64,000 nucleotides of DNA from Fibrobacter sp. (GCA_017503015.1 JAFVTX010000031.1:14022-78021); one strand, 5' to 3'; positions 16,669-46,516 are shown, counted from the first letter of the stretch. Made by a program: numbers and translations. The notes: generated from the letters alone by a model not told the origin.

Positions 16669-17688
16669 CTACGGTTTGCTAGGAGATTCCTTGGCCTTTT
16701 CCGCTGCGATTTTCCGAGCTTTTTCGATTAGGTTGGCCGGCACGCCAAGGGACTCCAGAATGTCGATTCCTTTGGCAAGACCTTTGGCAAGACCTTTGGC
16801 AAGGCCTTCGGCACTAGCTTTCTCACAGGCTTCGGCACAGGCTTTTTCCGTGCCACGACGTATGCCGCTGGCAATAATCGTATCTATCTCTTCCCGCGTT
16901 ACCATGTCCTTCTCCTGCCTCGTCAAGAGTTCGTCGTCTGCGTTGTCCACCCGGATGCGTTCCAGGGCCTCCTCCAGAATCTCGTTGCCAAAATGCGGCA
17001 GTTCCTTGCCATCGCCGGCGTGGTTCAGCAGGTACAGCCAAGCGTCCACGGATCCTGAGACTTCGCTTTCGGATTTCTTGAACTTGGGCAGACTAATCAT
17101 AATATACTTATTTTTCCCGAAAACGGGTGCCGCACTGCCTTTTTTTAGCGCATTGCGACTATATAGCGCCCATTCGTCTATGTATTCATCATTACCGTAG
17201 TCGCCCGAGTCAAAGTCGCAAATCCAGATGGAGACCGTTTCCGGAAGCTCGTACCGCTTGCTTTCTCGTATATCCCTGGGAAGTGCCTGGAACTCCTTGG
17301 TCCGTTCCATCTCCTGCTTGCCCTTGATAATCAAGAAAGCCTTGTAAAGAACAGCCCTGTCGGTAAAGAAGTCGTGTTCGGCCTTCTGCATCTCTATGTC
17401 GATAAAGCGTCCTGTGCCCGTGGTGGCGAAGATATCCAGGATTACCTTCTTGCTGCGGGCAGAACGCATCGTTATGGTCTTGTCGAAGGTGAAGGTGAGG
17501 TTCTTGATTTTGTCGTCGCCTTCCAGTTGCAGGACTCCGTCCAGAAAATCCTTGAGGGCGCTTTCGCTGTCAAAGAGTTCCTTGAAGCCCGTATCGTATC
17601 TAGGGTCCAGATAGACTTGACCCTGTAGCGATTCGGGGATAGGTCTCTTGCGGACGGGTTTGGTTTTTCTTTGCCTGTTTTTTCTCAT
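16669..17688 (-). CDS. PD-(D/E)XK nuclease family putative transposase (Rpn-like, PDDEXK_2 type)
   Basis: YLDPRYDTGFKELF N-terminus, ILDIFATT...FIDIEMQKAEH nuclease motif, C-terminal (GLAK)x3 repeat. Confidence 0.8.
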   Translation of the reverse strand: MRKNRQRKTKPVRKRPIPESLQGQVYLDPRYDTGFKELFDSESALKDFLDGVLQLEGDDKIKNLTFTFDKTITMRSARSKKVILDIFATTGTGRFIDIEMQKAEHDFFTDRAVLYKAFLIIKGKQEMERTKEFQALPRDIRESKRYELPETVSIWICDFDSGDYGNDEYIDEWALYSRNALKKGSAAPVFGKNKYIMISLPKFKKSESEVSGSVDAWLYLLNHAGDGKELPHFGNEILEEALERIRVDNADDELLTRQEKDMVTREEIDTIIASGIRRGTEKACAEACEKASAEGLAKGLAKGLAKGIDILESLGVPANLIEKARKIAAEKAKESPSKP

Positions 17689-17800
17689 AGCGTCTTAATC
17701 CGGGTGCGCCCCGGTGAACGGCGAGGCGGAATGCCCCGTACTGTATAAGACGCTTTTTTGAAACGAAAAAGGCCCTGTAAAGAATCTTTTTACAAAGTGA
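17689..17800 (-). promoter_or_regulatory. Conserved 5' flank shared by Rpn-like genes (copy 1)
   Basis: Contains ggcggaatgccccgtactgtataagacgcttttttg, as in the other copies. Confidence 0.45.
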
Positions 17801-17801
17801 A

Positions 17802-17828
17802 CAAAAAAGACCCTCCCGGGAGGGAGGG
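17802..17828 (-). terminator. Rho-independent terminator after lipoprotein paralog 2
   Basis: Minus strand: ccctccctcccgggaggg followed by tctttttt. Sequence-related to the terminator at 16622-16650. Confidence 0.7.
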
Positions 17829-17855
17829 AATGAACTTTTTAAGGGTAATGCCGAA

Positions 17856-19091
17856 TTACCAGCAAGATATCGAGTACCCATCACAAGCGGACATCACCGT
17901 GTATGTTCCGGGACTTGTATCCACCTGTAGGTTCCAACCGACACTCTGACTGACTCCATTAATTTCAACAGAACAATTTCCATTACCCTGAGGAGGCGCA
18001 ATCTGCATCTTTTGTGAACAAGAATGGGTAACCGTATATTCCACATTTGCCTTTAACGGATCTGAGTAAGGCAACGTAATCTTGTCTTCAGGATTATTAC
18101 CATCAATCACCTTTGGCGACGGGCAAGTAATGACGGTATCCGATTCCGCCGTGCTTACAGTAACCTTCGGCGAAAGCGGCTGCTTTTGGGTAAACGTATA
18201 CTCTGCAGTTGTCGCGGTTCCAAGGTTATTATCCCACTTATATCCTGTAATCGTTTCATTGTTCTCATCTATACAAGCAACACTCCAAGCCCCCTTTGCA
18301 GGGTATTCTATACCTGCTATATCAACAATCGGCGTTGTCGCTTCGCATGAGCACCCCTTGATGGGCAGACCGTTCACCTTGACAGAACCACAATCAATGG
18401 TCTTATCCCCAATTTTCAGCGTTGCAGAATACCTATCCGCCTTGGTGTAGGTGGCCGTCGCCGTATTGGTCTTGCAGGGAGCGCTAGCCGTCCCTTCGGT
18501 TGACCCTGTCATGGTCCATTCACAGGTAGCGGCATTCACCATGTTGTTGTAATCCATCACCTGTTGTACGCTAGAACCAGCAGGCAGGCTAGCCTTGGTG
18601 AACGTCCAGGTTACAGAGCCCCCCTTCTGGATAGAGGCCGGAACGGGAGCGCAGGAACCGTCGGGCTTGGTGCCGTCCGAAATGACTGCACTAGACGGTG
18701 GCGGATTGTTGCCACCGGAGGCCGAACTGCCGGTGGGGGTTGACGAAGTGGAAACCGGACCGGAGTTGGTGCTGACAGGTCCCGATGCGGAACTCTTCGG
18801 GGCCTCGCCGCCTTCACCACCTTCCCCGCCTTCGGCGCTGCTCTCAGGCGGAACGTATTCGGCACCTTCCATCTTGGCTGCGCAGGCCTCGTCGGCAGCG
18901 CAGTCAGCCATGGCCTGGTTCAACAGGGTCTTCATGTTGCCCTCGTCACCTTCGGCGAACGGGGGGCCGTAGTTCAACAGGGCCAGCTCGTCGTCGCCGC
19001 CCTTGGTAATCACATCACCGTCACCGCAGGCCCAGAAAGCCGCAGCGGCAACGCCCAAAACAGAAAATCCCACAAGAAATTTCTTGTTCAT
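17856..19091 (-). CDS. Cys-rich surface lipoprotein, paralog family member 2
   Basis: Lipobox AAFWAC. N-module GGDDELALLNYGPPFAEGDEGNM...CAADEACAAKMEGA, a Ser/Gly linker and Ig-like repeats. Ends ...CDGYSISCW. Confidence 0.7.
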   Translation of the reverse strand: MNKKFLVGFSVLGVAAAAFWACGDGDVITKGGDDELALLNYGPPFAEGDEGNMKTLLNQAMADCAADEACAAKMEGAEYVPPESSAEGGEGGEGGEAPKSSASGPVSTNSGPVSTSSTPTGSSASGGNNPPPSSAVISDGTKPDGSCAPVPASIQKGGSVTWTFTKASLPAGSSVQQVMDYNNMVNAATCEWTMTGSTEGTASAPCKTNTATATYTKADRYSATLKIGDKTIDCGSVKVNGLPIKGCSCEATTPIVDIAGIEYPAKGAWSVACIDENNETITGYKWDNNLGTATTAEYTFTQKQPLSPKVTVSTAESDTVITCPSPKVIDGNNPEDKITLPYSDPLKANVEYTVTHSCSQKMQIAPPQGNGNCSVEINGVSQSVGWNLQVDTSPGTYTVMSACDGYSISCW

Positions 19092-19293
19092 AATAAACCT
19101 CTTTGAGGTAAATATATGCTTTTTCAGGAGAAATTTCTAGTAAAAAGTTTCAAATAAAAGCTCACAGCGAGTGTTTTACGCTTTTACGTGAGCTATTTCC
19201 CGCTTTTTTGTAAAGCGGGATTTACCTTGTACCGTAACGATGGTTCAACCCATATTTCCAAAGAGGCAAAAAACAGGGAACATCTTTACCTTT

Positions 19294-20619
19294 TTACCAT
19301 AAAGCCATCACAAAATTGAAGTCTCCTACAGGATACATATACATAGTGCAGCTAGATCCATCTTGATACCCTGTTTGTAATCCTGAAAAGCCTCCAGTTT
19401 TCAAGGATTCCGTTTTTTTCTCGCCACTGCAGTCAGTGAAGTATATCTTCTGTTCGTTTCCACTCCAGTTTCCACCTTGAACAGTTGCATTGTAGCCCTT
19501 AGAGGCTTTTATGCTTATCGCATAACACTGGTTAGCCGTGACTGCAAATTCAATTTGGTTTCCATCAAAATTCTTCGCCGTGCTGTTGCCAGAATTGCAC
19601 TTGAAGGGAGTATTGTCTATAATGGTCGCTGCAGGGCAAGAAACGATAGCCGAATTGCCATCGGGATTTTTGACCGTCGCAGAAACAGTGTAGGAACCCA
19701 GTTCAGTGAAACTCGCCGTGGCGGTCGCCCCCGAACCAGTCGCACCGGTCCAGCTATAATCAAACCTTTCCGCCTCCCTGCCTAGACCGTCAACACTTGA
19801 GCACCCGGTAATTTCCCATTTAACCGTTACAGGACTGCCATCCTTCAAGTCGGCACTAGACGGCGTGTATACCGGAGCCCCGCAAGTACACCCCGTAACC
19901 TCCGGGCCCACCACGGTCAGCTTGTTGCAGGTGATGGCCTTAGACTCTCCATCGATGGTCAACTTTGGTGTGTAGACACCCGTTTCAGCGAACACGGTAG
20001 TGGGCGATTCCTCCTCGCTGGTAGTAATGTCGGCCCCAGTAAAGCTCCAGCTATAACTTTTGGCGGCCTCACCGTTGGTCCTAAACTGCCACTGGATAGG
20101 CGTCCCCTTGACTACAGTCGTTACACCCCCTGCTGGTTGGCAATATCTGAGCACCACACCTGCAATGGAGGAATTGCTGCTGGTGGCTACACTTGCAGAA
20201 GACGTTTCCGGCACATCGCCAGACCCGCCCTGGGAGTCTGAACTGACCGTAGATATAACGGGAGCTCCCGCAGAGTTGATAACGATGCCACGAGAAGAAC
20301 TGGAGCGTGATTCCGTCGCGGCGCTGCTTTCTTCGAGGACCGCTTCTGAGCTGCTGCTTTCTTCTTCGGGAATGTCCAATTCTCCATCGGCATTCTCCAT
20401 GGCGGCCTTGCAGACGTCGTCGGCTTCGCAGTCCTTGATGGCGTTGTTCCTAAGGGTCCACATGTTACCGGTATCGCCTTCCACAAACGGAGGGCCATAG
20501 TTCAGCAAGGCAAGTTCGTCTTCGCCGCCACGAGCATCTACGGTGCCATCTCCGCAAGCCCAAAAGGTTGCGGTAACCATAACTACAGAGGAAAAAAAGA
20601 TAAAAGGATTCTTACCCAT
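19294..20619 (-). CDS. Cys-rich surface lipoprotein, paralog family member 3
   Basis: Lipobox ATFWAC. N-module GGEDELALLNYGPPFVEGDTGNM...CEADDVCKAAMENA. C-terminal ~100 aa resembles the C-terminus of the 2381-aa pilus-associated giant protein. Confidence 0.7.
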   Translation of the reverse strand: MGKNPFIFFSSVVMVTATFWACGDGTVDARGGEDELALLNYGPPFVEGDTGNMWTLRNNAIKDCEADDVCKAAMENADGELDIPEEESSSSEAVLEESSAATESRSSSSRGIVINSAGAPVISTVSSDSQGGSGDVPETSSASVATSSNSSIAGVVLRYCQPAGGVTTVVKGTPIQWQFRTNGEAAKSYSWSFTGADITTSEEESPTTVFAETGVYTPKLTIDGESKAITCNKLTVVGPEVTGCTCGAPVYTPSSADLKDGSPVTVKWEITGCSSVDGLGREAERFDYSWTGATGSGATATASFTELGSYTVSATVKNPDGNSAIVSCPAATIIDNTPFKCNSGNSTAKNFDGNQIEFAVTANQCYAISIKASKGYNATVQGGNWSGNEQKIYFTDCSGEKKTESLKTGGFSGLQTGYQDGSSCTMYMYPVGDFNFVMALW

Positions 20620-20699
20620 AACCCATACTCCCTAAATTACCCAACCATAAATATATATTTTTTTTTACGAATAGAAGGCGCAGGCAAGGACCCGCTATC

Positions 20700-20817
20700 A
20701 AAAAAGCGCCTGTAAACAAAATTTTCAGGCATATTTCGCCCCAAAGAAACGTCTTATACATAGACGGGACCTTCCCCGTCTGCGATACGGGCGCGTTCCC
20801 GCATTTTTGGAATAAAA
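20700..20817 (+). promoter_or_regulatory. Conserved 5' flank shared by Rpn-like genes (copy 2)
   Basis: In gene orientation: ctgtaaacaaaattttcaggc ... aaagaaacgtcttatacat. Confidence 0.45.
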
Positions 20818-21756
20818 ATGACAAGAGAGGAATTCCTCGCCATGGTCAAGGACGTGCACGAGCATCCCGAACACCTGGCGAAATACCGCAAGAAGTACAA
20901 GAACGTTTACCCGTTCAGCGACGGCATCTTCAAGATGCTCATGGCGAACGAGGCCAAGCCGCAGCGCACCGTAAAGTTCCTGAACGCCATGCTCGGGCTT
21001 ACCGGACGCAAGGCCATCAAGACATACACCCTCGGGGTTCCGGAGAACCCTGGTGTACTGAATGACAAGACCGCCATCTTCGACATCTACGGCACTACGC
21101 AATCCGGTGAGCCGGTGCTTATCGAGGTGCAGCAGACATTCAACAAGCTGTTCGTCGACAGGCTCATCTACTACACCGGCCGCGTCGTCTCGCGCACCGT
21201 CAAGAAATCGCAAGATTACAAGTTGCCACACATCTACGTGCTCTCGCTTTTGACCGAGAACCAGTTCCCGAAGGAACCGGACACCTACCTGCACCATGCG
21301 CAAATCGTGCGGAATCGTCGCATTTTCTACAAAAAAATGGACATCTATCTGGTCGAAATCGAGAAGTTCTTCGCCATCGACAAGCGCACCTCACCGTGCA
21401 AGCGCGAAGCGACCGACAGGGCCGAAATGCTGCGCCTGTTCCGCGACGTGCTCGAGGAAAATGATATCCCCGAGGAAAAGCTGAAGAAACTGCTTGACAA
21501 GGACTTCATGAAAGATGTATCTTTAGTGGGGTACACCGACGAGACACTCCTGAACGAGGTTGACGGGATGACGAATATTATTTACGAAAAACAGGGATCA
21601 TATTTGCAGGGTGGCGAAGACAAGGCGAACGAAATCGCCCTCGCGATGCTTGCCGAAGGCGATTCCGTTGACAAAATTGTCCGTGTAACCAAGCTCCCGA
21701 AGCAGGAAGTGGTCAAACTGAAGCGGCAAGCCGCGAAAGAACTGGCCACAGCGTAG
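20818..21756 (+). CDS. PD-(D/E)XK nuclease family putative transposase (Rpn-like, PDDEXK_2 type)
   Basis: IFDIYGTTQSGEPVLIEVQQ nuclease motif. Family-typical length and C-terminal helical region. Confidence 0.7.
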   Translation: MTREEFLAMVKDVHEHPEHLAKYRKKYKNVYPFSDGIFKMLMANEAKPQRTVKFLNAMLGLTGRKAIKTYTLGVPENPGVLNDKTAIFDIYGTTQSGEPVLIEVQQTFNKLFVDRLIYYTGRVVSRTVKKSQDYKLPHIYVLSLLTENQFPKEPDTYLHHAQIVRNRRIFYKKMDIYLVEIEKFFAIDKRTSPCKREATDRAEMLRLFRDVLEENDIPEEKLKKLLDKDFMKDVSLVGYTDETLLNEVDGMTNIIYEKQGSYLQGGEDKANEIALAMLAEGDSVDKIVRVTKLPKQEVVKLKRQAAKELATA

Positions 21757-21762
21757 CTCCAT

Positions 21763-21934
21763 TGTCATCCCCGACTCGGTCGGGGATCTCCTAGCCCCCC
21801 TTCGTCATCCTCGCGGAGGCGAGGATCCGTGTACATCCCTCCAGCGGATGTTCGCCTACGCGAACATGACGAAAGCCTTCCTTGTCATCCTCGCGACCTG
21901 TGGTGAGCGAAGTCGAACCAAGGCGAGGATCCGC
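21763..21934. repeat. Cluster of four GTCAT...ATGAC-type hairpins between an Rpn-like gene and the left cassette
   Basis: tgtcatccccgactcggtcggggatc, cgtcatcctcgcggaggcgaggatccg, gcggatgttcgcctacgcgaacatgac, and the long-loop tgtcatcctcgcgacctgtggtgagcgaagtcgaaccaaggcgaggatccgc. Confidence 0.85.
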
Positions 21935-31882: not shown

Positions 31883-32422
31883 CTATAGCTTCGACCAGTC
31901 ATCCGATCCACTCTTCAACTTGGATATAAACACATTTTTAGTCCTTTCTTTAACCGCGGCTGCATACAAGTCGCGGTCGCCATATTTCACCACTATGTAA
32001 CCCTCGTAAGGGGCGGTAGAAAGTCCTGGACGCGGGATAAAGGATGCCTGGGCTTCCGTCGAAGATACTAGGTTATAGCCATCAAGCCCACCAAAATCAC
32101 TAGTGATAATCGAGGACTGAGCATCAAGCACCAAACTATCGATAGGGGTGTCGAAATTGCCAGAGGCACACGACGCTCTGTAAGTTTTGAGCATTCTGTC
32201 CCCGTCATTTCGGACGCACAGAGAATCGTTAATCTGGCGAGCCTTGTTGGCAACCATTTCTAGGTAGGCCGCTACATTGAGAGCCGAATCCTTGGTTCGA
32301 GCATTAGCCACCGCACTTTGAAACCCGACCACACCCATGCCCGATAGGATGCCCATAATAGAAATCACCGCCAGTAACTCGACCAGCGTGTATCCCGCTT
32401 TTTTATGTGGTTTGCTCTGCAT
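31883..32422 (-). CDS. GspH/FimT-FimU-like minor pilin, left cassette
   Basis: MQSKPHKKAG|YTLVELLAVISIMGIL followed by ALNVAAYLEMVANKARQ (GspH/FimT-like helix). ATG at 32422; the ORF track start 32446 is a GTG inside the conserved leader. Confidence 0.7.
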   Translation of the reverse strand: MQSKPHKKAGYTLVELLAVISIMGILSGMGVVGFQSAVANARTKDSALNVAAYLEMVANKARQINDSLCVRNDGDRMLKTYRASCASGNFDTPIDSLVLDAQSSIITSDFGGLDGYNLVSSTEAQASFIPRPGLSTAPYEGYIVVKYGDRDLYAAAVKERTKNVFISKLKSGSDDWSKL

Positions 32423-32520
32423 ATACAGTTCCCTATTCAAAATCACCCTACGACCAAAAACTGGGTGGGCACACCTCCCTAAGCCCGGAAACCCAGTTTC
32501 CCTTCCTGCTTAAAATAGCT
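32413..32520. repeat. Inner inverted repeat, left copy (leader plus first 3 codons of the left cassette)
   Basis: The reverse complement matches 35554-35661 with 2 mismatches in 108 nt by hand alignment (90 nt uninterrupted). Identity stops abruptly at both ends. Confidence 0.9.
32456..32502 (-). promoter_or_regulatory. Identical leader hairpin and T-run in the left cassette 5' leader
   Basis: Mirror copy of 35572-35618 within the inner inverted repeat. Confidence 0.45.
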
Positions 32521-32528
32521 TTTTTTTT
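32520..32528. repeat. T9 (A9 on the coding strand) homopolymer at the inner edge of the left inverted repeat
   Basis: In cassette orientation: gcgAAAAAAAAAgcTATTTTAAGC. An A-tract directly upstream of a TAT-rich -10-like box. The right-hand copy lacks the tract (acatacaagcTATTTTAAGC). Confidence 0.8.
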
Positions 32529-32560
32529 CGCAAATAGTTCACATTTTTTTACAAAGGGGA

Positions 32561-32590
32561 CAAAAACCGCCTTTTCGAGGTAAAAAAGGC
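32561..32590 (-). terminator. Terminator after the central Rpn gene, insulating it from the left cassette
   Basis: Minus strand: gccttttttacctcgaaaaggc followed by ggtttttg. Confidence 0.6.
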
Positions 32591-32650
32591 AGTTTGTGAC
32601 GAGTGATGGGGTGGAATACGCTTGTTTAACGCAAGAAATGCGTCAAATGT

Positions 32651-33610
32651 TTATTTTAGCGCTTCTGCTTTGGCGATAATGCTCTTGGAAACGCCCTGGG
32701 ACCGGAGCAGTTCAATCACTTTGTCTATTCCTTTCTCCATTCCTTTCTCCATTCCTTTCTCCATTCCCTTTTTCATGCCTGCACGACGGCCTGCCCGCTC
32801 TGCGGCACGTCGAGCATCGCCGGCACTTACAAATCCCAGTCTTTGTCCTATGCTTTTCCATGCCATCTGCAATTCCTCCAGGCTTTCCTCGTCGATGAAC
32901 TCTCCTAAATATAAATTAATTTTGTCAAGAAAGACATTCTTGCCGTAATTCCCCAACATCCAAAGACGCTCTCCTATGGCTCGCGCCAAGTCTGACAGTC
33001 CTCGCTTATCAAAGGCATATTTCAGTATAAGCGCTCCAATCGCTGCTTCCACATTGTCGTCGGCGAGACACGATTCATCGTTCAGTTCAGACATGTTCAC
33101 CATCACGAGTTCAAACGGAAGATCTTTTCCCTGAAATTTTGCGCGATTCTTACGCTTGAAGGCTGCCACCGGGTCCCAGCTTCGTTTTCCGTTGTAGATT
33201 ATTATCGCTTTGGTCGGATACCAGCGGAATTCCGGGTCGTTTTTGTTTACCATTACATTGAACGCATATCGCCCCACCTGGTCGAGAAGTGCTCTGTCGG
33301 AAGCGGACTTGTGTTCTAACAGGATTCCCACGAACACATCTTTGCCCCTATACGCCTTCGCCGTGAACGCGAGATCCGATTCGCCCTTCTCGCCAACTTC
33401 GTTGTAAAAGCCGGGAAACAGCGTAAGTGTGTCGAGGTTCACGTCTTCGAGCATGGCATCTAGCTCCCTGTTGGCTTCACGTGCAAGGGTCAGGAGAGTC
33501 TTTGCGTTGGTCGGTTTGGAATAGATGTAACGGAAGAACCCGTCATGGTTCCTTCTTGTTGGATTGTTGCGTTTCTTCAAGTTTCTTGAATCCACCTGCT
33601 TGTTATTCAT
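32651..33610 (-). CDS. Rpn family recombination-promoting nuclease / putative transposase (YhgA-like)
   Basis: N-terminus ...RRNHDGFFRYIYSKPTNAKTLL resembles the RpnA/YhgA HDxxFK start. ILLEHKS nuclease block. C-terminal (GMEK)x3 repeat. Confidence 0.75.
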   Translation of the reverse strand: MNNKQVDSRNLKKRNNPTRRNHDGFFRYIYSKPTNAKTLLTLAREANRELDAMLEDVNLDTLTLFPGFYNEVGEKGESDLAFTAKAYRGKDVFVGILLEHKSASDRALLDQVGRYAFNVMVNKNDPEFRWYPTKAIIIYNGKRSWDPVAAFKRKNRAKFQGKDLPFELVMVNMSELNDESCLADDNVEAAIGALILKYAFDKRGLSDLARAIGERLWMLGNYGKNVFLDKINLYLGEFIDEESLEELQMAWKSIGQRLGFVSAGDARRAAERAGRRAGMKKGMEKGMEKGMEKGIDKVIELLRSQGVSKSIIAKAEALK

Positions 33611-33735
33611 TTCATTGTCGTGTGCGTCCCGTTAAACGGTAGGGCGGAATGGCCCTACATTGTATAAACGCTTTTTTGGGCCAAAACTTGCCTGAAAATT
33701 TTGTTTACGTACGATGTTTTACAAATGAAAGGGGA
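33611..33735 (-). promoter_or_regulatory. Conserved 5' flank shared by Rpn-like genes (copy 3)
   Basis: Plus strand: ggcggaatggccctacattgtataaacgcttttttgggccaaaacttgcctgaaaattttgtttacgtacgatgttttacaaatgaaagg. Confidence 0.45.
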
Positions 33736-33740
33736 TGGCG

Positions 33741-33781
33741 ATGGTAGGGATAGGAGATCCCGGCACTGTGGCCGGGATGAC
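33741..33781. repeat. Hairpin repeat with gatggtagggataggagat leader upstream of the central Rpn gene
   Basis: gatggtagggataggagatcccggcactgtggccgggatgac. The same leader recurs at 46688 and 46749. Confidence 0.75.
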
Positions 33782-34155
33782 AATGAAAGAGCGCGAGTAA
33801 AACGAGGAAGATGTTCGTCATGTTCGTCCTGGAACACTGGTGGTGTGAGCGCTTGCAAATGTTGTTTTTTGAGAATTGGACCTATAAAACGGCGCGTTTT
33901 GCCACTTTTATATGCCCCTGAAATCAAAAAAATGCCTCGGAGTGGCCTTTTTGAGGCATCATGCTCAGAAAAAGGGCCGAAAAACGGTCTGTTTTGACGG
34001 AATTCTGTTAGTTTGTATGGAAAAAGGGCATATAAGAAGACATTTTTCCCAGTTTTATAGGTACATGTCGAACGCACCGCCTTCTTGGAGACATATAAAT
34101 CGCCTCAAAAAACTGGTTTTATAGGTCCGTCGGGAGAAATCGGGGGTGTTAGGGG

Positions 34156-34244
34156 GTCCCGGCACTAGGCCGGGATGACAACCCCCTAGGGGAAGGGGGT
34201 GATGAAAGACACGGCTAGATGGCGGGTCGTGGCCCGCCATGACG
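34156..34244. repeat. Two hairpin repeats upstream of the recombinase gene
   Basis: gtcccggcactaggccgggatgac and ctagatggcgggtcgtggcccgccatgacg. Confidence 0.75.
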
Positions 34245-34345
34245 CCGTGGCTGCAATCAGGGGGAAGGCTTTCCCCCTTTTTTAGGTAGGAAAGAGTCGC
34301 TCCTTTTGGCGAAAAACGGGGATTTTGCGGGTGGTGTGACATTCC

Positions 34346-35356
34346 GTGCACACCGCTTTGCCTATTATTTGGGGCATGGAGTGGAAACGTTTGTCGGTGG
34401 TACAGCGGCACAAGAGTCGCGGGATAAAGACCTGGTACCTCCGGGAAAATTCGGGCGGCGTGATTTCGTACAGGTCGCTGGGGACCACGTGCAAGAGGGT
34501 GGCGGAGGAGTGCCTGCAGAGGCTTCTGGTGCTGCGTTTCGCCATGCCCGGGGAGGTGCTGGAGGGGGTGCCCATGGAGGGTGCTATGCGGGAGTTTCTG
34601 GAGCGTCCGGGCCTGAAAATGGGCAGCGTGGAGCAGTACCGCCGTATTCTGGAGCATTTTTCGGGGTGGTGCAAGGCCCAGCGGGTCCATGACCTGCTTT
34701 CTGTGGACGAGAGGCTCGCGCGGAAGTACTATGCGTCGCTCCGGGGGAAGTCGGCGCGGCACAAGTGTCGCGTGTGCGGGTGCTTTTTGAGCTGGGTTTA
34801 CCGGGAAAATCGGGTGGAGCGGGCCCAGCCTTTCAAATTCGTGGATTTTCGGCGGGTGGCGAAGGTGGAAAGGGACGCCTGGAGTGTCGATGAGGTGGAG
34901 CGCATCGTGGAGACGGCGCCTACGGCCGAGATGCGGATGCTGTGGGCGCTGATGGCCTACGCGGGGCTTCGGGTCCACGAGGCGGCGGGGCTTAGGCAGG
35001 CCGACATTCTGGGGGACCGTTTCCAGGTTGTGGGAAAGGGGGACAAGTTCGCGGTGCTGCCCATAAACGGGCGGCTCCGGCGGGAACTGGAGCGGTTCGG
35101 AAGCCTGGGAGACGGGCTGAAAATCGACAAGCAGAAATCTATTCGTGAAATCAAGAAGGTCTGCGCGCGGCTGAAGATTGAAGGCTGGGCGTCGAACCAC
35201 AAGTTCCGTCACAGTTTCGCGACGAATCTCGCGGCCAGCGGGTGCCCTGTGGCGGTGGCCATGCGGCTGTTGCGGCACAGTTCCAGCGCCATGACGCTGG
35301 ACGTTTATACCCACATTGTGCCCGCCGATATGCGGGAGTGGGCGGAAAAAGTGTAA
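34346..35356 (+). CDS. Tyrosine site-specific recombinase (XerC/D-phage integrase family)
   Basis: Catalytic pattern AGLRVHEA (Arg), HKFRHSFAT (HxxR), LLRHSS and LDVYTHI (Tyr). Alternative ATG start at 34376. Markedly GC-rich relative to its neighbours. Confidence 0.85.
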   Translation: MHTALPIIWGMEWKRLSVVQRHKSRGIKTWYLRENSGGVISYRSLGTTCKRVAEECLQRLLVLRFAMPGEVLEGVPMEGAMREFLERPGLKMGSVEQYRRILEHFSGWCKAQRVHDLLSVDERLARKYYASLRGKSARHKCRVCGCFLSWVYRENRVERAQPFKFVDFRRVAKVERDAWSVDEVERIVETAPTAEMRMLWALMAYAGLRVHEAAGLRQADILGDRFQVVGKGDKFAVLPINGRLRRELERFGSLGDGLKIDKQKSIREIKKVCARLKIEGWASNHKFRHSFATNLAASGCPVAVAMRLLRHSSSAMTLDVYTHIVPADMREWAEKV

Positions 35357-35373
35357 AAGTTGCGCCGAACTGG

Positions 35374-35505
35374 GCGCAAAAATCATGCCAAATACAGGTG
35401 GGCGCGGACCTGGCTCCGGTTAGCTTCGATTAGCTCCGGGTGCAAAAATCGAGCCAAATGCGGATAAACGCGGGTAGGCTCAGACGCAAAAACTGTGCCC
35501 AAATA
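35374..35505 (+). promoter_or_regulatory. Three direct ~20-bp iterons between the recombinase gene and the right inverted repeat
   Basis: gcgcaaaaatcatgccaaata (35374), gtgcaaaaatcgagccaaatg (35440), acgcaaaaactgtgcccaaata (35484). GCAAAAA cores are 66 and 44 bp apart. A weaker copy gcaagaaatgcgtcaaatg lies near 32625-32645. Confidence 0.5.
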
Positions 35506-35553
35506 ATGCACACAACGCGCCAATTCCTTTATTCTAAAGGGAAAATACATACA

Positions 35554-35661
35554 AGCTATTTTAAGCTGGACGGGAAACTGGGTTTCCGGGCTTAGGGAGG
35601 TGTGCCCACCCAGTTTTTGGTCGTAGGGTGATTTTGAATAGGGAACTGTATATGCAGAGCA
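35554..35661. repeat. Inner inverted repeat, right copy (leader plus first 3 codons of the right cassette)
   Basis: agctattttaagctggacgggaaactgggtttccgggcttagggaggtgtgcccacccagtttttggtcgtagggtgattttgaatagggaactgtatatgcagagca. Confidence 0.9.
35572..35618 (+). promoter_or_regulatory. Leader hairpin followed by a T-run (possible attenuator) in the right cassette 5' leader
   Basis: gggaaactggg ... cccagttttt arms enclose an inner gggc/gccc stem. Competing small palindrome ggaaactgggtttcc (35573-35587). Confidence 0.45.
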
Positions 35662-36188
35662 CATCGCATAAAAAGGCAGGCTTTACGCTAGTGGAAATGC
35701 TGGCGGTTATTTCCATTATGGGTATCCTTGCTGGCATGGGGGTTGTCGGTTTCCAAACCGCCGTGGCGCACGCCCGCACTAAAGACGCCGCCCTCAATGT
35801 GGCTGCCTTCTTGGAGCGCACGGCCAACGAGGCCCGCAAGTTGAACACCTCCCTGTGTATCCGCAATGACGGCACCAGCAAGCTGGTGGTCTACAAGTCC
35901 GCCTGCAATGCCGGTACCATGGGCGATGCTGTGGACCAGCTGGTTCTGGAAAGTCAGGTTACAGTTGTTGTTAGCGATGTGGATGATGTTGGCGGTGGCG
36001 GAATCAACTTAATCACTTCGACAGACGCCAAAGCCACGTTCAAACCGCGCCTGGGGCTTTCATCGGCACCCTATGAAGGGTATGTAGTCGTGAAGTACGG
36101 CAGTGAACGCGGAGCGGCGGTCAAGGAAAAGACAAAGAATTCGTTCAAACCCAAGTGGAGCCCTTCGGGGTCCTGGTCGGATTTGTAG
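35652..36188 (+). CDS. GspH/FimT-FimU-like minor pilin, right cassette
   Basis: MQSTSHKKAG|FTLVEMLAVISIMGIL...ALNVAAFLERTANEARK. Paralog of 31883-32422. Confidence 0.7.
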   Translation: MQSTSHKKAGFTLVEMLAVISIMGILAGMGVVGFQTAVAHARTKDAALNVAAFLERTANEARKLNTSLCIRNDGTSKLVVYKSACNAGTMGDAVDQLVLESQVTVVVSDVDDVGGGGINLITSTDAKATFKPRLGLSSAPYEGYVVVKYGSERGAAVKEKTKNSFKPKWSPSGSWSDL

Positions 36189-41000: not shown

Positions 41001-44000
41001 ACCTTCCAAGTCAGCACCACTGGCGGTCCAACGAACATTTTTACGGTCACGAATAATTCCGCAAGTTCTGGAATACTTACCTTCCAGATTTTGGACTGCA
41101 TAGAGGGCGGTTGCAATGTAGGCATCCCCAATATTGAGCTCGTCTACATATTTAGTAGCGTCAAAGTCAAAAGGAAAACACTTGCCGAATGGTGTGCCGA
41201 AAATGGGGATGATGCTGATGCAACGAAATGTGCTAAGAAAAATCAACCTGACTGTCCTTTATCAGACGAATGGATTCGTGCAAATGGAACAAATTGTACC
41301 GCAAATCCAATCAACAATGCTTGGGATTGCGACATTACAGATGACATAAGTCTGGAACTCATTAATTCAAATATTCCCGATGGCTGTGAAGCTATAATTC
41401 CAGGAGACAACCTACTAGAAGCACCTTTTGCCAACAAGTCAACAAGGTATCTTTATGCCTCACTCAAGGCAAAGAAAAAAATGTTCCATACAGGGTTCAA
41501 AATACCTTCTGATATTGACCCTGATCAGACAATTCATATTCTTGCAGAACACAACGGAGTTGCTGATGAAGAAAAGGATTGTTCCTATTCTGATTTCACA
41601 AGCAACACGGATGGTGTCCGAGAAGAACACTGTGATATTGATGTTTACTACGGATCGCGTGTAACCCTGAGCCTAAAGAATGACTCCGACCGAGACAATT
41701 TTAACTACTGGCTATGCACCTCTGGTGTAGATTGTCCTAGCGAAAAGATTCCTGTCAACACCTACACTTACTCTATTTCCATCACTGGTGAGAATACGGT
41801 CTACGCACACTATAACGAAAAAGATAAGCATTGTTTCTTTGACGAGTTTAAAGACAAGAAGAATTCTTACGGAAACCGCGCTACCATGGCGTGTGGAACA
41901 GAAAAAGAGTACTGCATTGATGTATGTAATGGCACATGTTCTAACGCAATTACTACTAGTTCTGGTGATGGCGCCATGCCAGATGCAAAATGGAGACTTA
42001 TTGATGGAGACTTGAGCAATATTGAGTTCTCTGGCGATGGGAAAATCAGCCTAAAATCGAACACCACGCGGGGGCGCAAGGAAAACACCAAGGGTTCCGC
42101 TACAATTATGAGTTCCGTGCAGGCAGGCATCTATGGAACACTTAAGGCTCAGTTCCAGGTCCCCCGTGAGGGCGTGAACGAGAATGACGAAGCCAAGTCA
42201 ACAATAAAAAAATCAGGTTTTATGTTACGCTCCAACACCAATGGAAGCAGCTATTTAATGCTGAATATCTTTAGCGACATATCTGGATATCTAAAGGCTA
42301 GAATTTGTTTGAATGGCGGTAATACCTGTAAAGAGAAAAGGATTGGTTCCGCTAGCGCCAATGAGGGTGCCATTGTCACAATTTCTGCGACACTGCAAAA
42401 ACTAGTCAATCCAAGTGATGGAACCTATAAGGACGAACTTGAAATTCGCGCCTATACAAACGCATTTAGCAGCTACTATGAATTCACGACCTTCGATTTA
42501 ACCAATTCAGAACTGAATGGCGTTGAGGATTTGGCAAATCAGACTCATGAATATCTGGGAATGAAGCTTTCTGACCAAAATTTCAAGATTTATGGAATTG
42601 GATGGAAGAGTGACGACTATGTTTCAGAATGCTGGGATGTTTATCCAACAGTTTCATGTTCTTTCAAAGCTGCATACGCAGGCGGCATTGTTCCTCAATC
42701 CACAGCGCTTTCGAGTAAACCCGTTAAGCCATGGGTCGGACTTTCCAGCTGGTTCGAAAATGCTGGTGGATGCACTCGCGTATATTACTACAAGGGAAAC
42801 GACGCCGGTTGTTACGGCAGTGTGACGGGAACCGATGATTACAAGGAATGTACGAATAATTATTATGAATTTACCACAAGTGGCCCCCACGGTGCAACTG
42901 CGGATGGCGATAAAACGGCAAAAGCAGGTGTTAGTGGGTGTACTGTTTATGGAGAGGCTGCCGCCTGGGCGAATAGCGCTGTAGCGGCACACTGTGGTGC
43001 TTTCTGGGTGGGTGAATTTAAGAATTGTAGTCAAAATGTGGCTTTTGGTCATACAGTCGATGGAGCTGACGGTAGTTACTTTGCGCTTGATGCAAATGGA
43101 TCCGGGGCTGCCAATCTTCGAGATGCCGATTTAATCGTCACCCTAGACAATCCCAATGGTGCAGAAGTATCGGTTTATCTATTCAGTAAGAATTCAGAAA
43201 ATGGTTACACCTACGGCAGTGCCCCTGTTTACAGCCAGTCCTATACCACGACTATGCAAGGGACCAATTTCGACATCTCCATAGCCGTATCCAACATCTC
43301 TAATGTGGAGGGATTTGATCCTGAACATGTGGTGGGAGTGTACATAAAGACTGATGACGCAAATGTGAATATCCGTGCGGTACGAAGCAGTTGCGAACAT
43401 GTGTTGAAAATAGCAAGCTGCTCGGCCAGTTGGGATGGAGTAAATCGGAAGTTTAACATTTCTGCCAAAGTGAACAACCATTCCGATGCGGGTAGTTTTA
43501 CAGTTACTGAGAAAAACAGCAACATTACAGGGAGCATTGCAAAGGATTGCAAAAATAGCGAATGCAGCTGGTCGGGAGACAATGCCGAGTTTGAATGGAG
43601 TTACAATGCGTTCGACGATGTTGTCTCTGATCCTTCGGGGTACAGGGATTACTATTTCGTGATAGGCATGAAGGACAAGGAAGGAGGGGATACTGAGGAC
43701 TCCCCCTGCACTACTCCGGCGGTCCGAGTAAGCAAGATTTCTGCCACATGCAGTGTAAATAAGGAATCTGTAGAGAGAGGTACCGGACTACCCGTCTTTA
43801 CCTATTCCATAAGTGGGTGTCCTTCAGATAACACTGGTTGCCCGTATGAAATTAAACTTCAAGATATTGATCAACAACTGATTAGCGCCTCTAGTGGCAA
43901 TTTCAACGGAAAGACAACAGATCCAGAAGCAGCCAACACAAGCGGGAATCCGCTTGATGCGGGAACCTACAAATTTGTCATGAAAAGTACCAATGCCAAC

Positions 44001-45227
44001 CAGCCGTTTGCTGATTGTGAGGAAGAATTTACCGTGACAATTCCGTCAAGCTCATCGGTAGAAAGCAGCAGTAGCATTCCTTCGAGTAGCAGTGTGGCAA
44101 GTAGCAGTTCTGTCGCTTCGAGCAGTAGTGTAAGTGGAGGCGGATTCTCTTGCACTTACACAGGCACAACAGGTGTAAAAATCCAGGGAGGAGTCGGCAA
44201 TCAAAATCTGGCTTCGACCAACGCACCGCATGCACAATATGACTTGTACATTGATGATGAAAAAAAGGTTACCGGTACTTGGGGACTTGGATTCAATTTT
44301 ACTACGCCCACGTCGCTTGGCAATCATACTTATAAGGTTACTAAAATGGGAGAAACAGCTCCACAATGTCAGGGATCTTTCGAAGTGGTCAACCCATTGC
44401 AATGTAGCGTCGATGATGTGATTCCATTAAATGTTGCAAAAACATTTAGTGTATCCGTGATGGACAATTTTAGTTGTTCAAATTGCAATTACACTAATGT
44501 CGATTGCGGATACAGTTGTAGCGGAGGGAGTGTAACCAATTACAGCTTTACGCTAACAAACATGAATACAACAGAATTGAAGGTTCAATGTCAGTGCAAC
44601 GACAACATCAATCAGACATGTGCAAAATCTGTCACTGCAGTTCGTACCGCACCAACATTTAGTTGCAAAACGGGGCTGAAAGCCACCGTAGGTGAAACGA
44701 ACAATGTGAAAATTGTTTTGCTGGGTGTCACTGGTTGTGATGAAAATAGCCCTTGGTGCCGCTCCACCATTACGGGAACAGGAATCAGCGATCAAACAGG
44801 AATTGGCGTTTCTGACGGATCAACTGTAAATCTCACGGCTTTCACGGATAATGGTGGTACTGACGGGGCTACTAAGACCTATACGGTAACTCTTGAAAAT
44901 TCTGTCGGCCTTAGCGATGCCAGAACCTGCAGTGTGGAATTTACCGCAGGTTCCAGCTTTGCGTGCAATAGTGGTAATTCTGCGGCTTTGTCAAGCATGA
45001 CAGTACAGACAAACAAGTGCTACAAATACACTGTCGCGAGTTCGGGCAATTTCTATGTTGGAAACTGGTCTGGATCCGGAGTTGGAATGACCTATACTGA
45101 TTGCGGAGGAACTCCGCATACAGTCACTGTGGCTAATGGTAATTGGACTACATATGCCGTGGGTGGCGGGTGTGAAATCTACGCTGAATTTACAACAAGC
45201 GCCTATGTGCAATTTAACACTTACTAA
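38082..45227 (+). CDS. Giant PilX-N-terminal-domain protein (2381 aa), right cassette; candidate pilus-tip adhesin
   Basis: TKAGVSLVTVLLFMLVATIAATATYKWITSEGKSSTSRMIEREAYQSAIAGIENARSWM. Same RBS as the left copy. Cys-rich with a Ser-rich linker (SSSVESSSSIPSSSSVASSSS). Visibly AT-richer gene. Confidence 0.8.
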   Translation: MMFGIQNSKIGTKAGVSLVTVLLFMLVATIAATATYKWITSEGKSSTSRMIEREAYQSAIAGIENARSWMTYHANDVGALIKQYKENGSKPVKLDGQLAEFMRAGQTFHVWLTGVNTESSTYKLKIVSQGIARDGGATHSEVAILDVNGLYQVKIPSVKYTGEAIFNEAFFGSAKNGISLEVNSAIFNGDTKFNTKFNASDYVIVTGNVNVNSNTNVGDLYVKGNLCSCTNLNVSGNTYVESKMYINGTHVYNGDIYAKGGIDLSKKGATGCQCNTGYGGDFTVGGNVSTEGDLVMSRATSPNVNTFGGNLVLKNGAKIDFPTLSEFSYSTAGGLPTQTHISGNVFLDGGFSNGWFMGYARAGQVSLTSAGKTFYSSTPMYRVSDANQNVVYSWWKKANNEHQDTDISGDADGLYAIDKGGRSYKLTAVPKNTFCNKSNCQPTDDFSDTYFWDNAHFYCPSWEQKGYWEGFNWITYSEPSGCGNCSWYQEKAGVGDRNGYRWKCDTKGKQTSRNEIFVQINGTYSATKPDTTGWGADRLMDYENKITDENTGSGCGTSNHVADPIQFNKDLLTHNLMHTKDKPMECDDATLWNSWPNDPWGQLNSCYQKAKAANKLYDNQWLLINVGKAVWATENSHYLQGNFIIVIEGDNGYGLYLPQTRAQADESPSHVILYFPNGYDKTLNSKASSGPMNYFVFSDGDLKNTQLGGTKINGSVFLTDCHNMGSDQTIKIEFNPDLVAALEGSGVICTNDGTDKCSPNAGSSSSAASSASSETISFGGTDSYYISTAPQLSITLESQYANNENVENIASTGEDSKGSFVVLPRVIYLPTDPPGKLEHYYNVIPLNSKQTVESQSITCEGGIPTSGKLYDGTTSLVEGYYTCNVSGTVSGVSSTVPLYVVVRGTDATTPKVTFVTDDVELPKEEATTVQLTVPNTTGAAQTFKVKVARSGTETGWTVTPINPIGACDANSECTFQVSTTGGPTNIFTVTNNSASSGILTFQILDCIEGGCNVGIPNIELVYIFSSVKVKRKTLAEWCAENGDDADATKCAKKNQPDCPLSDEWIRANGTNCTANPINNAWDCDITDDISLELINSNIPDGCEAIIPGDNLLEAPFANKSTRYLYASLKAKKKMFHTGFKIPSDIDPDQTIHILAEHNGVADEEKDCSYSDFTSNTDGVREEHCDIDVYYGSRVTLSLKNDSDRDNFNYWLCTSGVDCPSEKIPVNTYTYSISITGENTVYAHYNEKDKHCFFDEFKDKKNSYGNRATMACGTEKEYCIDVCNGTCSNAITTSSGDGAMPDAKWRLIDGDLSNIEFSGDGKISLKSNTTRGRKENTKGSATIMSSVQAGIYGTLKAQFQVPREGVNENDEAKSTIKKSGFMLRSNTNGSSYLMLNIFSDISGYLKARICLNGGNTCKEKRIGSASANEGAIVTISATLQKLVNPSDGTYKDELEIRAYTNAFSSYYEFTTFDLTNSELNGVEDLANQTHEYLGMKLSDQNFKIYGIGWKSDDYVSECWDVYPTVSCSFKAAYAGGIVPQSTALSSKPVKPWVGLSSWFENAGGCTRVYYYKGNDAGCYGSVTGTDDYKECTNNYYEFTTSGPHGATADGDKTAKAGVSGCTVYGEAAAWANSAVAAHCGAFWVGEFKNCSQNVAFGHTVDGADGSYFALDANGSGAANLRDADLIVTLDNPNGAEVSVYLFSKNSENGYTYGSAPVYSQSYTTTMQGTNFDISIAVSNISNVEGFDPEHVVGVYIKTDDANVNIRAVRSSCEHVLKIASCSASWDGVNRKFNISAKVNNHSDAGSFTVTEKNSNITGSIAKDCKNSECSWSGDNAEFEWSYNAFDDVVSDPSGYRDYYFVIGMKDKEGGDTEDSPCTTPAVRVSKISATCSVNKESVERGTGLPVFTYSISGCPSDNTGCPYEIKLQDIDQQLISASSGNFNGKTTDPEAANTSGNPLDAGTYKFVMKSTNANQPFADCEEEFTVTIPSSSSVESSSSIPSSSSVASSSSVASSSSVSGGGFSCTYTGTTGVKIQGGVGNQNLASTNAPHAQYDLYIDDEKKVTGTWGLGFNFTTPTSLGNHTYKVTKMGETAPQCQGSFEVVNPLQCSVDDVIPLNVAKTFSVSVMDNFSCSNCNYTNVDCGYSCSGGSVTNYSFTLTNMNTTELKVQCQCNDNINQTCAKSVTAVRTAPTFSCKTGLKATVGETNNVKIVLLGVTGCDENSPWCRSTITGTGISDQTGIGVSDGSTVNLTAFTDNGGTDGATKTYTVTLENSVGLSDARTCSVEFTAGSSFACNSGNSAALSSMTVQTNKCYKYTVASSGNFYVGNWSGSGVGMTYTDCGGTPHTVTVANGNWTTYAVGGGCEIYAEFTTSAYVQFNTY

Positions 45228-45340
45228 AAGCAGGTAATACTTAAGGCTCCCCCCACATCAGCACCGGGGGGGCTTCCCTTCACCCCTAAACAATCAAAGT
45301 CCCAGGACACACCGTCCGGGGCTTTTTGCCGTTTTAATAA
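45228..45340. repeat. Outer inverted repeat, right copy (3' flank and terminator of the right cassette)
   Basis: See 21951-22063. Confidence 0.75.
45299..45335 (+). terminator. Terminator of the right pilus cassette
   Basis: gtcccaggacacaccgtccggggc followed by tttttgccgtttt. Homologous to 21951-21983. Confidence 0.65.
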
Positions 45341-45347
45341 GCTCTAG

Positions 45348-45446
45348 CGGATCCTCGCCTTCGCGAGGATGACGAAGGGCGATCCCCGCCTGCGCGGGGA
45401 TGACAAAGAGGGTGTGCGGGGATGACAATGGAGGGGCGAGGATGAC
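45348..45446. repeat. Hairpin-repeat cluster between the right cassette and the Rpn-like pseudogene
   Basis: gcggatcctcgccttcgcgaggatgac, gatccccgcctgcgcggggatgac, then half-sites ...gcggggatgac...gcgaggatgac. Confidence 0.85.
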
Positions 45447-45453
45447 GAGGGGA

Positions 45454-45463
45454 GGGGGGGGGG
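45454..45463. repeat. G10 homopolymer abutting the stop codon of the Rpn-like pseudogene
   Basis: ggaGGGGGGGGGGctattta. Confidence 0.8.
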
Positions 45464-46516
45464 CTATTTACCCAATGCCGCCAATTTTGCCTTGAATTCG
45501 GAAATCTGTTCGGGCGACAAGTCCATGCCCTGCAGCACGGCGATGGCATCGCTGTGCCCCTTAGATTCGCCCTCCCTGCGGGCACGGACCTTCAGTGAGG
45601 CCAGATAGTCCAGTTCTTCTTCCGTGAAAACCATATCCCTTGCCTGCTCCTTGATAAGTTTGTCCGACGCATTCACTACCAAAATACGCTTGATTGCCTG
45701 CGAAATCACGTCGTCGCCGAAATCCGGAAGGTCGTTGGCCCCGCCCGCATGCTTGAGCAGGTACAGCCAGCGGTCTTCGGTGGTCCGGACGGAATCGGTC
45801 GTCTTGTTGAACCGTGTCAGGTCATACAAAATATACTTCACCTTGTCGGTAATTGTCAACCCCCTCTCGTTACGAATTGCCCAGGTGCCGCGGTAACTGT
45901 CTTGTTGTTCAACTGCAAAGTCGCATATCCAGATAGCATAGGTGAGCGGGATTTCGTAGCGACGTTCCTCGCGACGTGCCCGTTCTTCGTCGGTAAGGTC
46001 TTTTTGCGGGTCCTTGAAAAACTCGTGATCCCACTCGTACTTGCTCTGAAGCAAGAAAGCGCTGTGCTGCAGCAGAATGCGGTCGATGAATCGACTGTGC
46101 TTTGCCTTTTGCATTTGACGCCTACGGCGTCCGCGACTGCGCCTCAGAAATAAAAACAAACAAGTTTGTTTTTGCTTCATTCGGCTTGTACGCTATTCGA
46201 TGTTCACGCTTAGCCCGTTGGAAGTGGTGGCGCGGATATCGAGCCTAAAGGATTTTACCTGCGGGAAGATGATGTTCACCTCGGTGTTCTTGACGGTGAC
46301 GGAAGTAATCCGGTTGTCACCTTCCAGATGAAATACCCCGTTCAGAAAACTCACAAGCGCCTGTTCATCGCTCAGGAACGCCTTAAATCCGGTGTCGTAG
46401 AGCGGGTCGATGTAGGTCCGCTTTTTGATTTCTTCGTAGGTCCTCTGCACCCAGAATTCCTGCGAGGTAGCGATGGTGAACTCGGGGCTGATTTCGTTAA
46501 TGTTCGTATTGTTCAT
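45464..46516 (-). pseudogene. PD-(D/E)XK/Rpn-like putative transposase gene interrupted by an 81-nt in-frame insertion carrying a stop codon
   Basis: ORFs 46193-46516 (...RLDIRATTSNGLSVNIE*) and 45464-46180 are in the same frame. Removing 46115-46195 restores VNIE-MQKAKH, matching IDIEMQKAEH of the intact paralog. Confidence 0.7.
46115..46195. repeat. 81-nt insertion with two small palindromes inside the Rpn-like pseudogene
   Basis: Contains gacgcctacggcgtc and aaaaacaaacaagtttgttttt palindromes. Sits exactly within the catalytic IEMQK motif. Confidence 0.6.

Follow-up and report, generated by a model that had tools for sequence, protein, structure and literature searches.

Rpn-family nuclease genes with a shared, reusable leader at recurrent positions of a probably phase-variable pilus locus in Fibrobacter

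Introduction

Four genes of the Rpn family, here termed rpn1 to rpn4, lie between positions 16669 and 46516 of a 64,000-nucleotide stretch of Fibrobacter sp. DNA (GCA_017503015.1 JAFVTX010000031.1:14022-78021; this whole stretch is referred to as the window), which is part of an assembly of 2.96 Mb in 74 contigs with a completeness of 99.9%. They are situated in and around a locus of two pilus cassettes that flank a core with a tyrosine recombinase. We propose, with a probability of roughly 0.6, that these genes are toxin or defence modules which are equipped with a reusable leader and held in tolerant positions of a hypervariable locus. Modules of this kind occupy three recurrent positions, one in the recombinase-bearing core and one at either outer end of the locus, past the giant tip-protein genes. 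The positions persist between species of one Fibrobacter subclade, but their occupants differ, having been lost, broken, or exchanged among subfamilies, in our view by recombination or horizontal transfer. A toxin or defence function of the window genes is what we infer by analogy with described Rpn proteins, which are encoded by antiphage genes of a toxin and intragenic-antitoxin type enriched in defence islands; in Escherichia coli, a toxic nuclease (RpnL) is checked by its own separately translated C-terminal domain (RpnS) (Zhong et al., PMC10400941).

Rpn genes of the window

The four genes named in a first-pass annotation of the window are found at the positions given there (Table 1), and all of them match Rpn-type Pfam families (PF12784 PDDEXK_2 or PF04754 Transposase_31) above the curated cut-offs of 27.4 and 21. 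The cut-off of the NCBIfam Rpn model TIGR01784 is passed by rpn1 only. We classify all four as Rpn-family PD-(D/E)XK nuclease genes; as such, they are new members of a known family. The annotation had counted at least two subfamilies and was right in seeing several, the number being three, not two: rpn1 and rpn4 (DP.YDTGFK), rpn2 (YPFSDGIFK) and rpn3 (HDGFFRY). Identity between rpn1 and rpn4 is 32-41%. The closest paralog pair is formed by rpn2 and a gene on contig C32 of the same genome (72% amino acid identity, tblastn), and for rpn3 a paralog with 40% identity is found on contig C15.

Inspection of the translations by eye yields the catalytic motifs YDTGFK, LDIFATT and IEMQK for rpn1, SDGIFK, FDIY and IEVQ for rpn2, and HDGFFRY, SDLAF and LEHKS for rpn3. 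The D..D..ExQ/K signature is unbroken in these three genes and split by an insertion in rpn4; the matching residues of E. coli RpnA, which were mutated there, are D11, D63, E82 and Q84 (Kingston et al., PMC5350276). C-terminal four-residue repeats are found in rpn1, (KGLA)x3, and in rpn3, (KGME)x3. Repeats of this kind are a hallmark of the RpnS antitoxin domain (Zhong et al., PMC10400941). The translations of rpn1 and rpn3 contain no in-frame methionine 8-20 residues ahead of the repeats, and a sequence search of the PDB with these two proteins returned nothing.

Two further observations concern the C-terminal part of these proteins. The rpn4-type gene of a related genome, G004 (L015:3058-4095), ends in (EGRA)x5 plus an rpn1-like tail and is devoid of the tail seen in the genes of the window and of the related genome G005, which indicates an exchange of the C-terminal (RpnS-like) domain between paralogs. 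At C8:55607-55870 there is a stand-alone fragment that matches the final 85 residues of the C15 Rpn protein with 53% identity; it could be either a free-standing RpnS-like small gene or a remnant.

As previously annotated, the fourth gene is disrupted. Relative to the intact ortholog in G005 (L013; 95-98% amino acid identity), it carries an in-frame insertion of about 81 nucleotides (~46115-46195) with a TAG codon, placed between E and MQ of the catalytic IEMQK motif, which rules out a simple nonsense point mutation. The inserted sequence is unique in the genome and hence is neither a repetitive extragenic palindromic (REP) element nor another repeat. The lesion must be considered real, because the identical rpn4 sequence is present in contigs from three other metagenome runs. 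The insertion folds into two small hairpins and supplies an ATG that opens a 238-amino-acid open reading frame (ORF) over the rest of the protein; a C-terminal product of rpn4 might still be made from this start.

Recurrent positions and changing occupants

In agreement with the first-pass annotation, rpn2 and rpn4 point inward, each oriented convergently with one of the two giant genes and separated from its 3' end by a hairpin cluster, and rpn3 is located in the core. The same three positions recur in related Fibrobacter species: Rpn genes are found at the core or at the outer ends of the locus in the genomes G003, G004, G005 and G006, and eight related loci share the order of cassette, core with recombinase, and cassette.

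The occupants change. The core contains rpn3 in the window and in L004 (98% amino acid identity), two different PDDEXK_2 Rpn genes in L005, one other PDDEXK_2 gene in L007, and in L003 an Rpn remnant, the middle of which is replaced by a gene for a 23S-rRNA intervening-sequence (IVS) protein. The cores of L006, L008, L030 and L031, which belong to distant relatives, contain the recombinase only and no Rpn gene, the two-cassette architecture being kept. The right outer position lies in the interval from the right giant gene to a conserved SulP gene. Its occupant is the disrupted rpn4 in the window and an intact copy of rpn4 in G005; G004 has a gene of rpn1 type there (79% identical to rpn1), G003 a fragment of YhgA type, and G006 a gene of C57 type. 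To the left, G003 has an rpn1 ortholog after a lipoprotein gene and no rpn2 at its position, G005 an rpn1-type gene that converges directly on the giant gene, and G004 an rpn4-type gene. The rpn1 orthologs of G003, G004 and G005 display 75-93% amino acid identity. In G004 the rpn1-type and rpn4-type genes are thus swapped relative to the window; inversion is ruled out as the cause of this swap, the orientation relative to SulP being unchanged.

All three PDDEXK_2 loci of G005 are at the pilus locus. When five genomes are taken together, this region, no more than 1-2% of each of them, contains ~13 of the ~41 Rpn loci. These loci are not independent events because the positions are partly inherited, and the turnover of occupants is the informative part. 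A direct precedent for such reuse of one position is found in E. coli, where two independent insertions of rpnC were inferred at a single panC-panD site (Kingston et al., PMC5350276). As an aside, the cores of two relatives carry extra cargo, a protein of 520-552 amino acids (L003:7749-9407, L005:7648-9210) with an HExxH motif (VHELCHMFGG) and no Pfam match.

A stabilising effect on chromosomal superintegrons is attributed to their toxin-antitoxin cassettes. In a similar manner, Rpn modules of toxin-antitoxin type might guard a locus that is large, rich in repeats and costly against deletion. Conservation of the central and both end positions under changing occupants is in line with such an addiction role, as are the occurrence of the leader at classical toxin-antitoxin genes (see below) and the description of Rpn as toxin plus intragenic antitoxin (Zhong et al., PMC10400941). 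However, the locus persists although several relatives have no core Rpn gene, G003 has no rpn2 and rpn4 is broken here. Rpn genes are not known to stabilise a locus, and simple residence in a permissive region would account for these observations equally well. We regard this explanation as improbable.

Within the 2.96-Mb genome there are 10 Rpn-type loci, four of which lie inside 29.8 kb of the window; the chance of finding at least four of ten loci within 29.8 kb is 7e-4 in a simulation. The association of Rpn genes with a variable surface-protein locus, as suggested at first pass, is thus borne out by clustering (P ~7e-4), by recurrence across species, and by a second case, a pilin and recombinase locus on contig C59 that adjoins Rpn units. 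The remaining Rpn loci outside the window and C59 are situated among housekeeping-type genes.

The C59 locus (C59:16745-25132) consists of a tyrosine recombinase (16745-17608), an inverted partial copy of the pilin (18170-18547) and the pilin (19056-19478), followed by three units of leader and gene, and then by genes with an HD domain and a RelA/SpoT domain. At C59:19753-20670, as well as at L003:6903-7708, the gene for a 23S-rRNA IVS protein (a four-helix bundle) lies inside an Rpn remnant, flanked by the leader with the first ~80 nucleotides of the Rpn gene on one side and by its last ~240 nucleotides on the other. The composite of C59 recurs with 94% DNA identity in the pilus core of the relative.

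Conserved units in a variable region

DNA comparison with the contigs of relatives displays normal synteny to the right of 46.8 kb, i.e. from SulP onward. Within the variable region almost nothing aligns with relatives except rpn1 with its leader (16666-17810, 80-92% DNA identity), the recombinase, and rpn4 with its leader (81-93%). The edges of the conserved Rpn units are sharp, and the neighbouring surface-protein DNA is unalignable. The unit of rpn1 starts exactly at the first hairpin of the leader (~17810) and ends a few tens of bases past the stop codon, at a terminator hairpin. Alignment across four genomes reveals neither terminal inverted repeats nor target-site duplications at the ends of Rpn units. 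Since the conserved unit spans leader to terminator without terminal repeats or duplications, the Rpn genes are best described as self-contained modules of leader, ORF and terminator. Insertion sequences are ruled out by the same absence of terminal repeats and duplications, and by closest paralogs of only 72% amino acid identity.

A shared leader of toxin-type genes

All four genes are preceded by a common block (Table 1), as the first-pass annotation had noticed. The motif TGTATAAGACGCTTTTTTG occurs at all four, with a deletion of one nucleotide at rpn3 and rpn4 (alignment); with at most two mismatches it is found at rpn1 and rpn2 only. The motif GCCTGAAAATTTTGTTTAC is exact upstream of rpn2, rpn3 and rpn4, as opposed to 0.03 matches expected by chance. 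The block is indeed present in all four, but it is specific neither to Rpn genes nor to this locus, and also precedes small genes of other kinds, including toxin-antitoxin genes.

When the four upstream regions are used as a profile, about 17 leader copies are detected in this genome. The full-length leader (~100 nucleotides) is present at eight sites, namely at the four window genes, at three consecutive units on C59 (an intact Rpn gene, a GIY-YIG gene, and the Rpn remnant holding the IVS-protein gene), and at an antitoxin gene (BrnA/CopG) on C74. Matches of shorter length are located ahead of Gp49/HigB-like, NYN, ComF-like and RadC-like genes, and the leader is missing at the Rpn loci on C57, C32, C60 and C15. 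With a sequence model, the leader is found in 47 of 61 sampled Fibrobacter genomes, with 11-14 copies per genome in the subclade of the window; tandem arrays with a spacing of ~1.2 kb are common across the genus. Among 37 copies with an immediate downstream ORF, 25 precede Rpn genes, every subfamily being represented. Eight more precede toxin-antitoxin-type or nuclease genes (RelB/DinJ-, BrnT- and DUF1016-like, IVS-protein and GIY-YIG; assigned by eye), and the last four precede short ORFs that are probably spurious.

Variants of the leader do not follow the subfamily of the ORF: one serves both the YhgA-type rpn3 and the PDDEXK_2-type rpn4 of G005, and another serves three Rpn subfamilies, which argues that leader and ORF were recombined repeatedly. 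Among concepts in the literature, the putative mobile promoter (Matus-Garcia, Nijveen and van Passel 2012; commentary PMC3575422) comes closest, and we take the leader to be a genus-wide, multi-copy, reusable 5' module of this type. It shares with mobile promoters the near-identical upstream sequence before non-homologous genes, the many copies, the occurrence across species and the lack of a recognised transposable element. On the other hand, it favours Rpn, toxin-antitoxin and nuclease genes, has a covarying hairpin in the sense direction, and is often preceded by REP-like hairpins. Since most of its copies stand before Rpn genes, and the rest mainly before genes of toxin-antitoxin and nuclease type, the leader probably provides these genes with common control of expression. 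Promoter or regulatory activity is presumed here.

From 5' to 3', the leader comprises an AT-rich hairpin with a T-run, an invariant A6-7-GCGTCT-TATACA box, a hairpin P1, a GC-rich hairpin P2 (CGGGnCGYnnCCCG) that is conserved in sequence only, and a spacer of 15-25 nucleotides without Shine-Dalgarno sequence before the ATG. RNAalifold on a plain MAFFT alignment missed the hairpins, the arms being misaligned; a manual and then a structure-aware alignment was used instead. In the latter, with 47 leader copies, six of the seven base pairs of P1 show changes on both sides, and one pair occurs with six pair types. Paired cells amount to 86.9%; shuffles give 77%, and none of 500 attains the observed figure. 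The covariation score is 0.311 as opposed to 0.151, with a maximum of 0.204 in slid controls, all of these values coming from an alignment made to fit the structure. There are 49 G-U cells for the sense strand and 10 that would form on the antisense strand, which suggests that P1 folds in the RNA of the sense strand. A search of Rfam 15 gave no match for the window at gathering scores, and no match at E <= 1 for two leaders. A sigma-54 reading of GGCA...TTT is ruled out by eye, the spacing being inconsistent.

Tandem units, such as the three on C59, the two in the L005 core, and those of several genus genomes at ~1.2 kb spacing, may recall integrons, in which case units of leader and gene would have been inserted as cassettes by the neighbouring tyrosine recombinase. 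Tyrosine recombinases do adjoin the core cargo and lie 2-3 kb from the C59 array. However, the conserved element is located 5' of each gene and resembles an expression leader, not a 3' attC site; R''/R' cores (GTTRRRY / RYYYAAC) are not seen by eye, no dedicated attC search having been run. Rpn units end without recombination-site repeats, most leader copies are not near a recombinase, and the core recombinase matches the generic Phage_integrase domain only and already has an evident job at the 108-bp inverted repeats. Capture of this kind appears very unlikely to us.

Architecture of the pilus locus

According to a repeat search, the two cassettes form an inverted duplication around the core with 74-83% DNA identity between them, and the duplication is old. 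Each contains four genes, encoding a pilin-like protein, a protein of ~190 amino acids, a pilin-like protein of ~457 amino acids and a giant protein (2381 or 2638 amino acids); N-terminal methylation motifs are present in three of the four gene types. The core, containing the recombinase and rpn3, is bracketed by near-perfect inverted repeats of 108 bp, located within a larger repeat pair at the core edges (I2, 32259-32521 versus 35553-35815). A 443-amino-acid ORF at 34055-35386 on the minus strand is spurious, having no Pfam match and facing the recombinase on the opposite strand.

Table 1. Positions of Rpn genes, leaders and neighbouring features in the window
Feature	Position	Strand	Details
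rpn1	16669-17688	-	339 amino acids, intact; PDDEXK_2 E 6e-26, 91.9 bits; TIGR01784 above cut-off
rpn1 leader	17689-17810	-	alignment; nhmmer E 1.6e-25; structured-model matches
rpn2 leader	20700-20817	+	alignment, profile and model matches
rpn2	20818-21756	+	312 amino acids, intact; PDDEXK_2 E 4e-26, 92.6 bits
REP-like hairpin cluster (three)	21764-21870		between rpn2 and end of left giant gene
Left inverted repeat bracketing core	32413-32520		repeat search; repeat contig at ~2x depth in Logan
rpn3	32651-33610	-	319 amino acids, intact; Transposase_31/YhgA-like E 1.5e-14, 54.6 bits
rpn3 leader	33611-33740	-	alignment; repeat D3, 84% identical to rpn4 leader
REP-like hairpin	33756-33781		upstream of rpn3 leader
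Tyrosine recombinase of core	34346-35356	+	Pfam Phage_integrase E 7e-18
Right inverted repeat bracketing core	35554-35661		repeat search; Logan contigs
REP-like hairpin cluster	45350-45404		between end of right giant gene and rpn4; conserved/variable boundary ~45437
rpn4	45464-46516	-	pseudogene, rpn1-like subfamily; PDDEXK_2 in two pieces, 37.5 + 37.8 bits
rpn4 leader	46517-46630	-	alignment, profile matches
REP-like hairpins (three)	46642-46789		upstream of rpn4 leader, before SulP 3' end

Orthologs of the recombinase, 59-99% identical, occupy the same place in eight syntenic Fibrobacter loci (L001-L008). A ninth match (L009) has 34% identity, with no cassette genes shown. All relatives of the core recombinase are from Fibrobacter genomes of gut or rumen metagenomes. 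If inversion takes place, this recombinase is likely to catalyse it. In either pilin cassette the first gene starts at the edge of a repeat (32413-35661), which is the classic layout of an inverton. Public metagenome contigs (Logan) end at the core inverted repeats, the repeat contig having about twice the depth; because contigs break there, inversion and alternative junctions are not readable from them. Both core orientations could exist, and the pilus locus is probably phase-variable.

Outside the core, proteins of the cassettes (window 22064-45227 compared with L001-L008) are only 40-56% identical where the core recombinase and rpn3 are 98% identical. This low identity implies either wholesale replacement of cassettes or very fast divergence.

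REP-like hairpins (GTCAT-stem-loop-stem-ATC, with covarying stems) exist in at least 241 perfect-stem copies genome-wide. The window contains 17 of them (3686-46789), about three times the expected number, often directly upstream of a leader. Like REP elements and bacterial interspersed mosaic elements (BIME), they are intergenic, have covarying stems, and cluster at gene ends and upstream of the leader; the difference is that they form a repeat family separate from the leader.

Discussion

Does the presence of Rpn genes at this locus reflect a role in its variation? The first-pass annotation had proposed that Rpn proteins generate the rearrangements, and a corresponding hypothesis would be that Rpn nucleases stimulate RecA-independent or break-induced recombination at their own positions and thereby shuffle the adjacent pilin, giant-protein and lipoprotein genes. 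Overexpression of RpnA-D in E. coli does raise RecA-independent recombination (Kingston et al., PMC5350276). Comparison with relatives, which the annotation had named as a check, places the boundaries between conserved and hypervariable DNA exactly at the ends of Rpn units. This is suggestive, and so is the persistence of the association in five genomes and at the C59 pilin locus; the contrast between diverged cassettes and a nearly identical recombinase and rpn3 would also fit.

However, the E. coli effect was seen under overexpression of a non-specific nuclease. The proposal of Rpn-generated rearrangements is not supported here: the mirror structure contains a tyrosine recombinase of its own, placed between near-perfect inverted repeats. 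In relatives with an empty core (L006, L008, L030 and L031) the two cassettes are retained and are just as diverged. The inactive form of rpn4 is fixed in several samples of this lineage, and the other Rpn loci of the genome, beyond the window and C59, have housekeeping genes and no variable ones around them. The same pattern of conservation would result from diversifying selection on surface proteins together with purifying selection on Rpn genes. Moreover, the presence of Rpn genes in variable regions is explained without a role in recombination by their enrichment in defence islands (Zhong et al., PMC10400941). Recombination driven by Rpn nucleases is an unlikely explanation for this locus, and we infer that a permissive variable region harbours the Rpn genes, and that these do not bring about its rearrangements.

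A more far-reaching idea combines several of these elements. The leader could be an undescribed cis-regulatory RNA that puts Rpn and toxin-antitoxin genes under one signal, e.g. phage attack or DNA damage, and the Rpn modules of the pilus locus could be working parts of a unit for receptor variation and defence, in which their breaks would promote wholesale exchange of pilus cassettes between strains, or in which they would instead guard a phage-receptor locus. We consider this speculative and rather doubtful.

Several points count against our proposal of toxin or defence modules with a reusable leader in tolerant positions. Four-residue repeats are not evident in the translations of rpn2 and of the window rpn4. 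PADLOC-DB 2.0 profiles match none of the four genes, the library dating from 2023 and possibly lacking Rpn, and the window yielded no further gene recognised as belonging to a defence system. The persistent association across species could represent a functional link that is understated by permissive positions. With regard to the leader, besides the fitting of the covariation alignment to the structure, no consistent sigma-70 consensus site is present in the four leaders. TATACA is not enriched upstream of ~1100 ORFs, where TATATT and TATATA are, and thus is not a general -10 box; used as a -10 box, it would put the start of transcription inside P1. For these reasons it is uncertain whether the leader box should be called a promoter, and the block in its entirety may be a 5' untranslated region. 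Metatranscriptome contigs give thin and directionless coverage of rpn3 and its leader, too sparse to place a start site.

In comparison with known systems, the window genes share with E. coli Rpn (RpnA-E, RpnP2; Kingston et al., PMC5350276; Zhong et al., PMC10400941) the Pfam and NCBIfam families, the D..D..ExQ/K signature, a variable C-terminal tail with four-residue repeats (here in rpn1 and rpn3), several paralogs per genome, horizontal spread, an intergenic site that is reoccupied, and the presence in variable or defence regions. They differ in being from Fibrobacterota, in the grouping of three subfamilies under one leader of ~100 nucleotides with a covarying hairpin, and in their fixed positions around a putatively invertible dual pilus-cassette locus. 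The setting resembles tyrosine-recombinase invertons, such as those of fimbriae and capsules, and pilin shufflons, in that inverted repeats surround a recombinase segment facing two surface-protein cassettes. This likeness concerns the setting and not the Rpn genes. We know of no invertible switch reported to carry Rpn genes as cargo. What appears undescribed is a genus-wide leader with a covarying hairpin and a preference for toxin-type genes, as well as the conserved positions of Rpn genes at a putatively invertible dual pilus locus.

Rpn proteins are widespread and poorly understood, and the roles reported for them range from promotion of recombination to self-inhibited antiphage toxins. 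The locus described here provides a natural comparison set, in which the same positions are filled, empty or broken beside surface genes that seem to be replaced wholesale, and which allows the presence of Rpn to be correlated with cassette turnover. The leader is a candidate for a common control element of toxin-type genes across the genus, and illustrates the reuse of promoters or leaders. If the Rpn genes are mere residents, the locus would caution against inferring a role in recombination from proximity alone.

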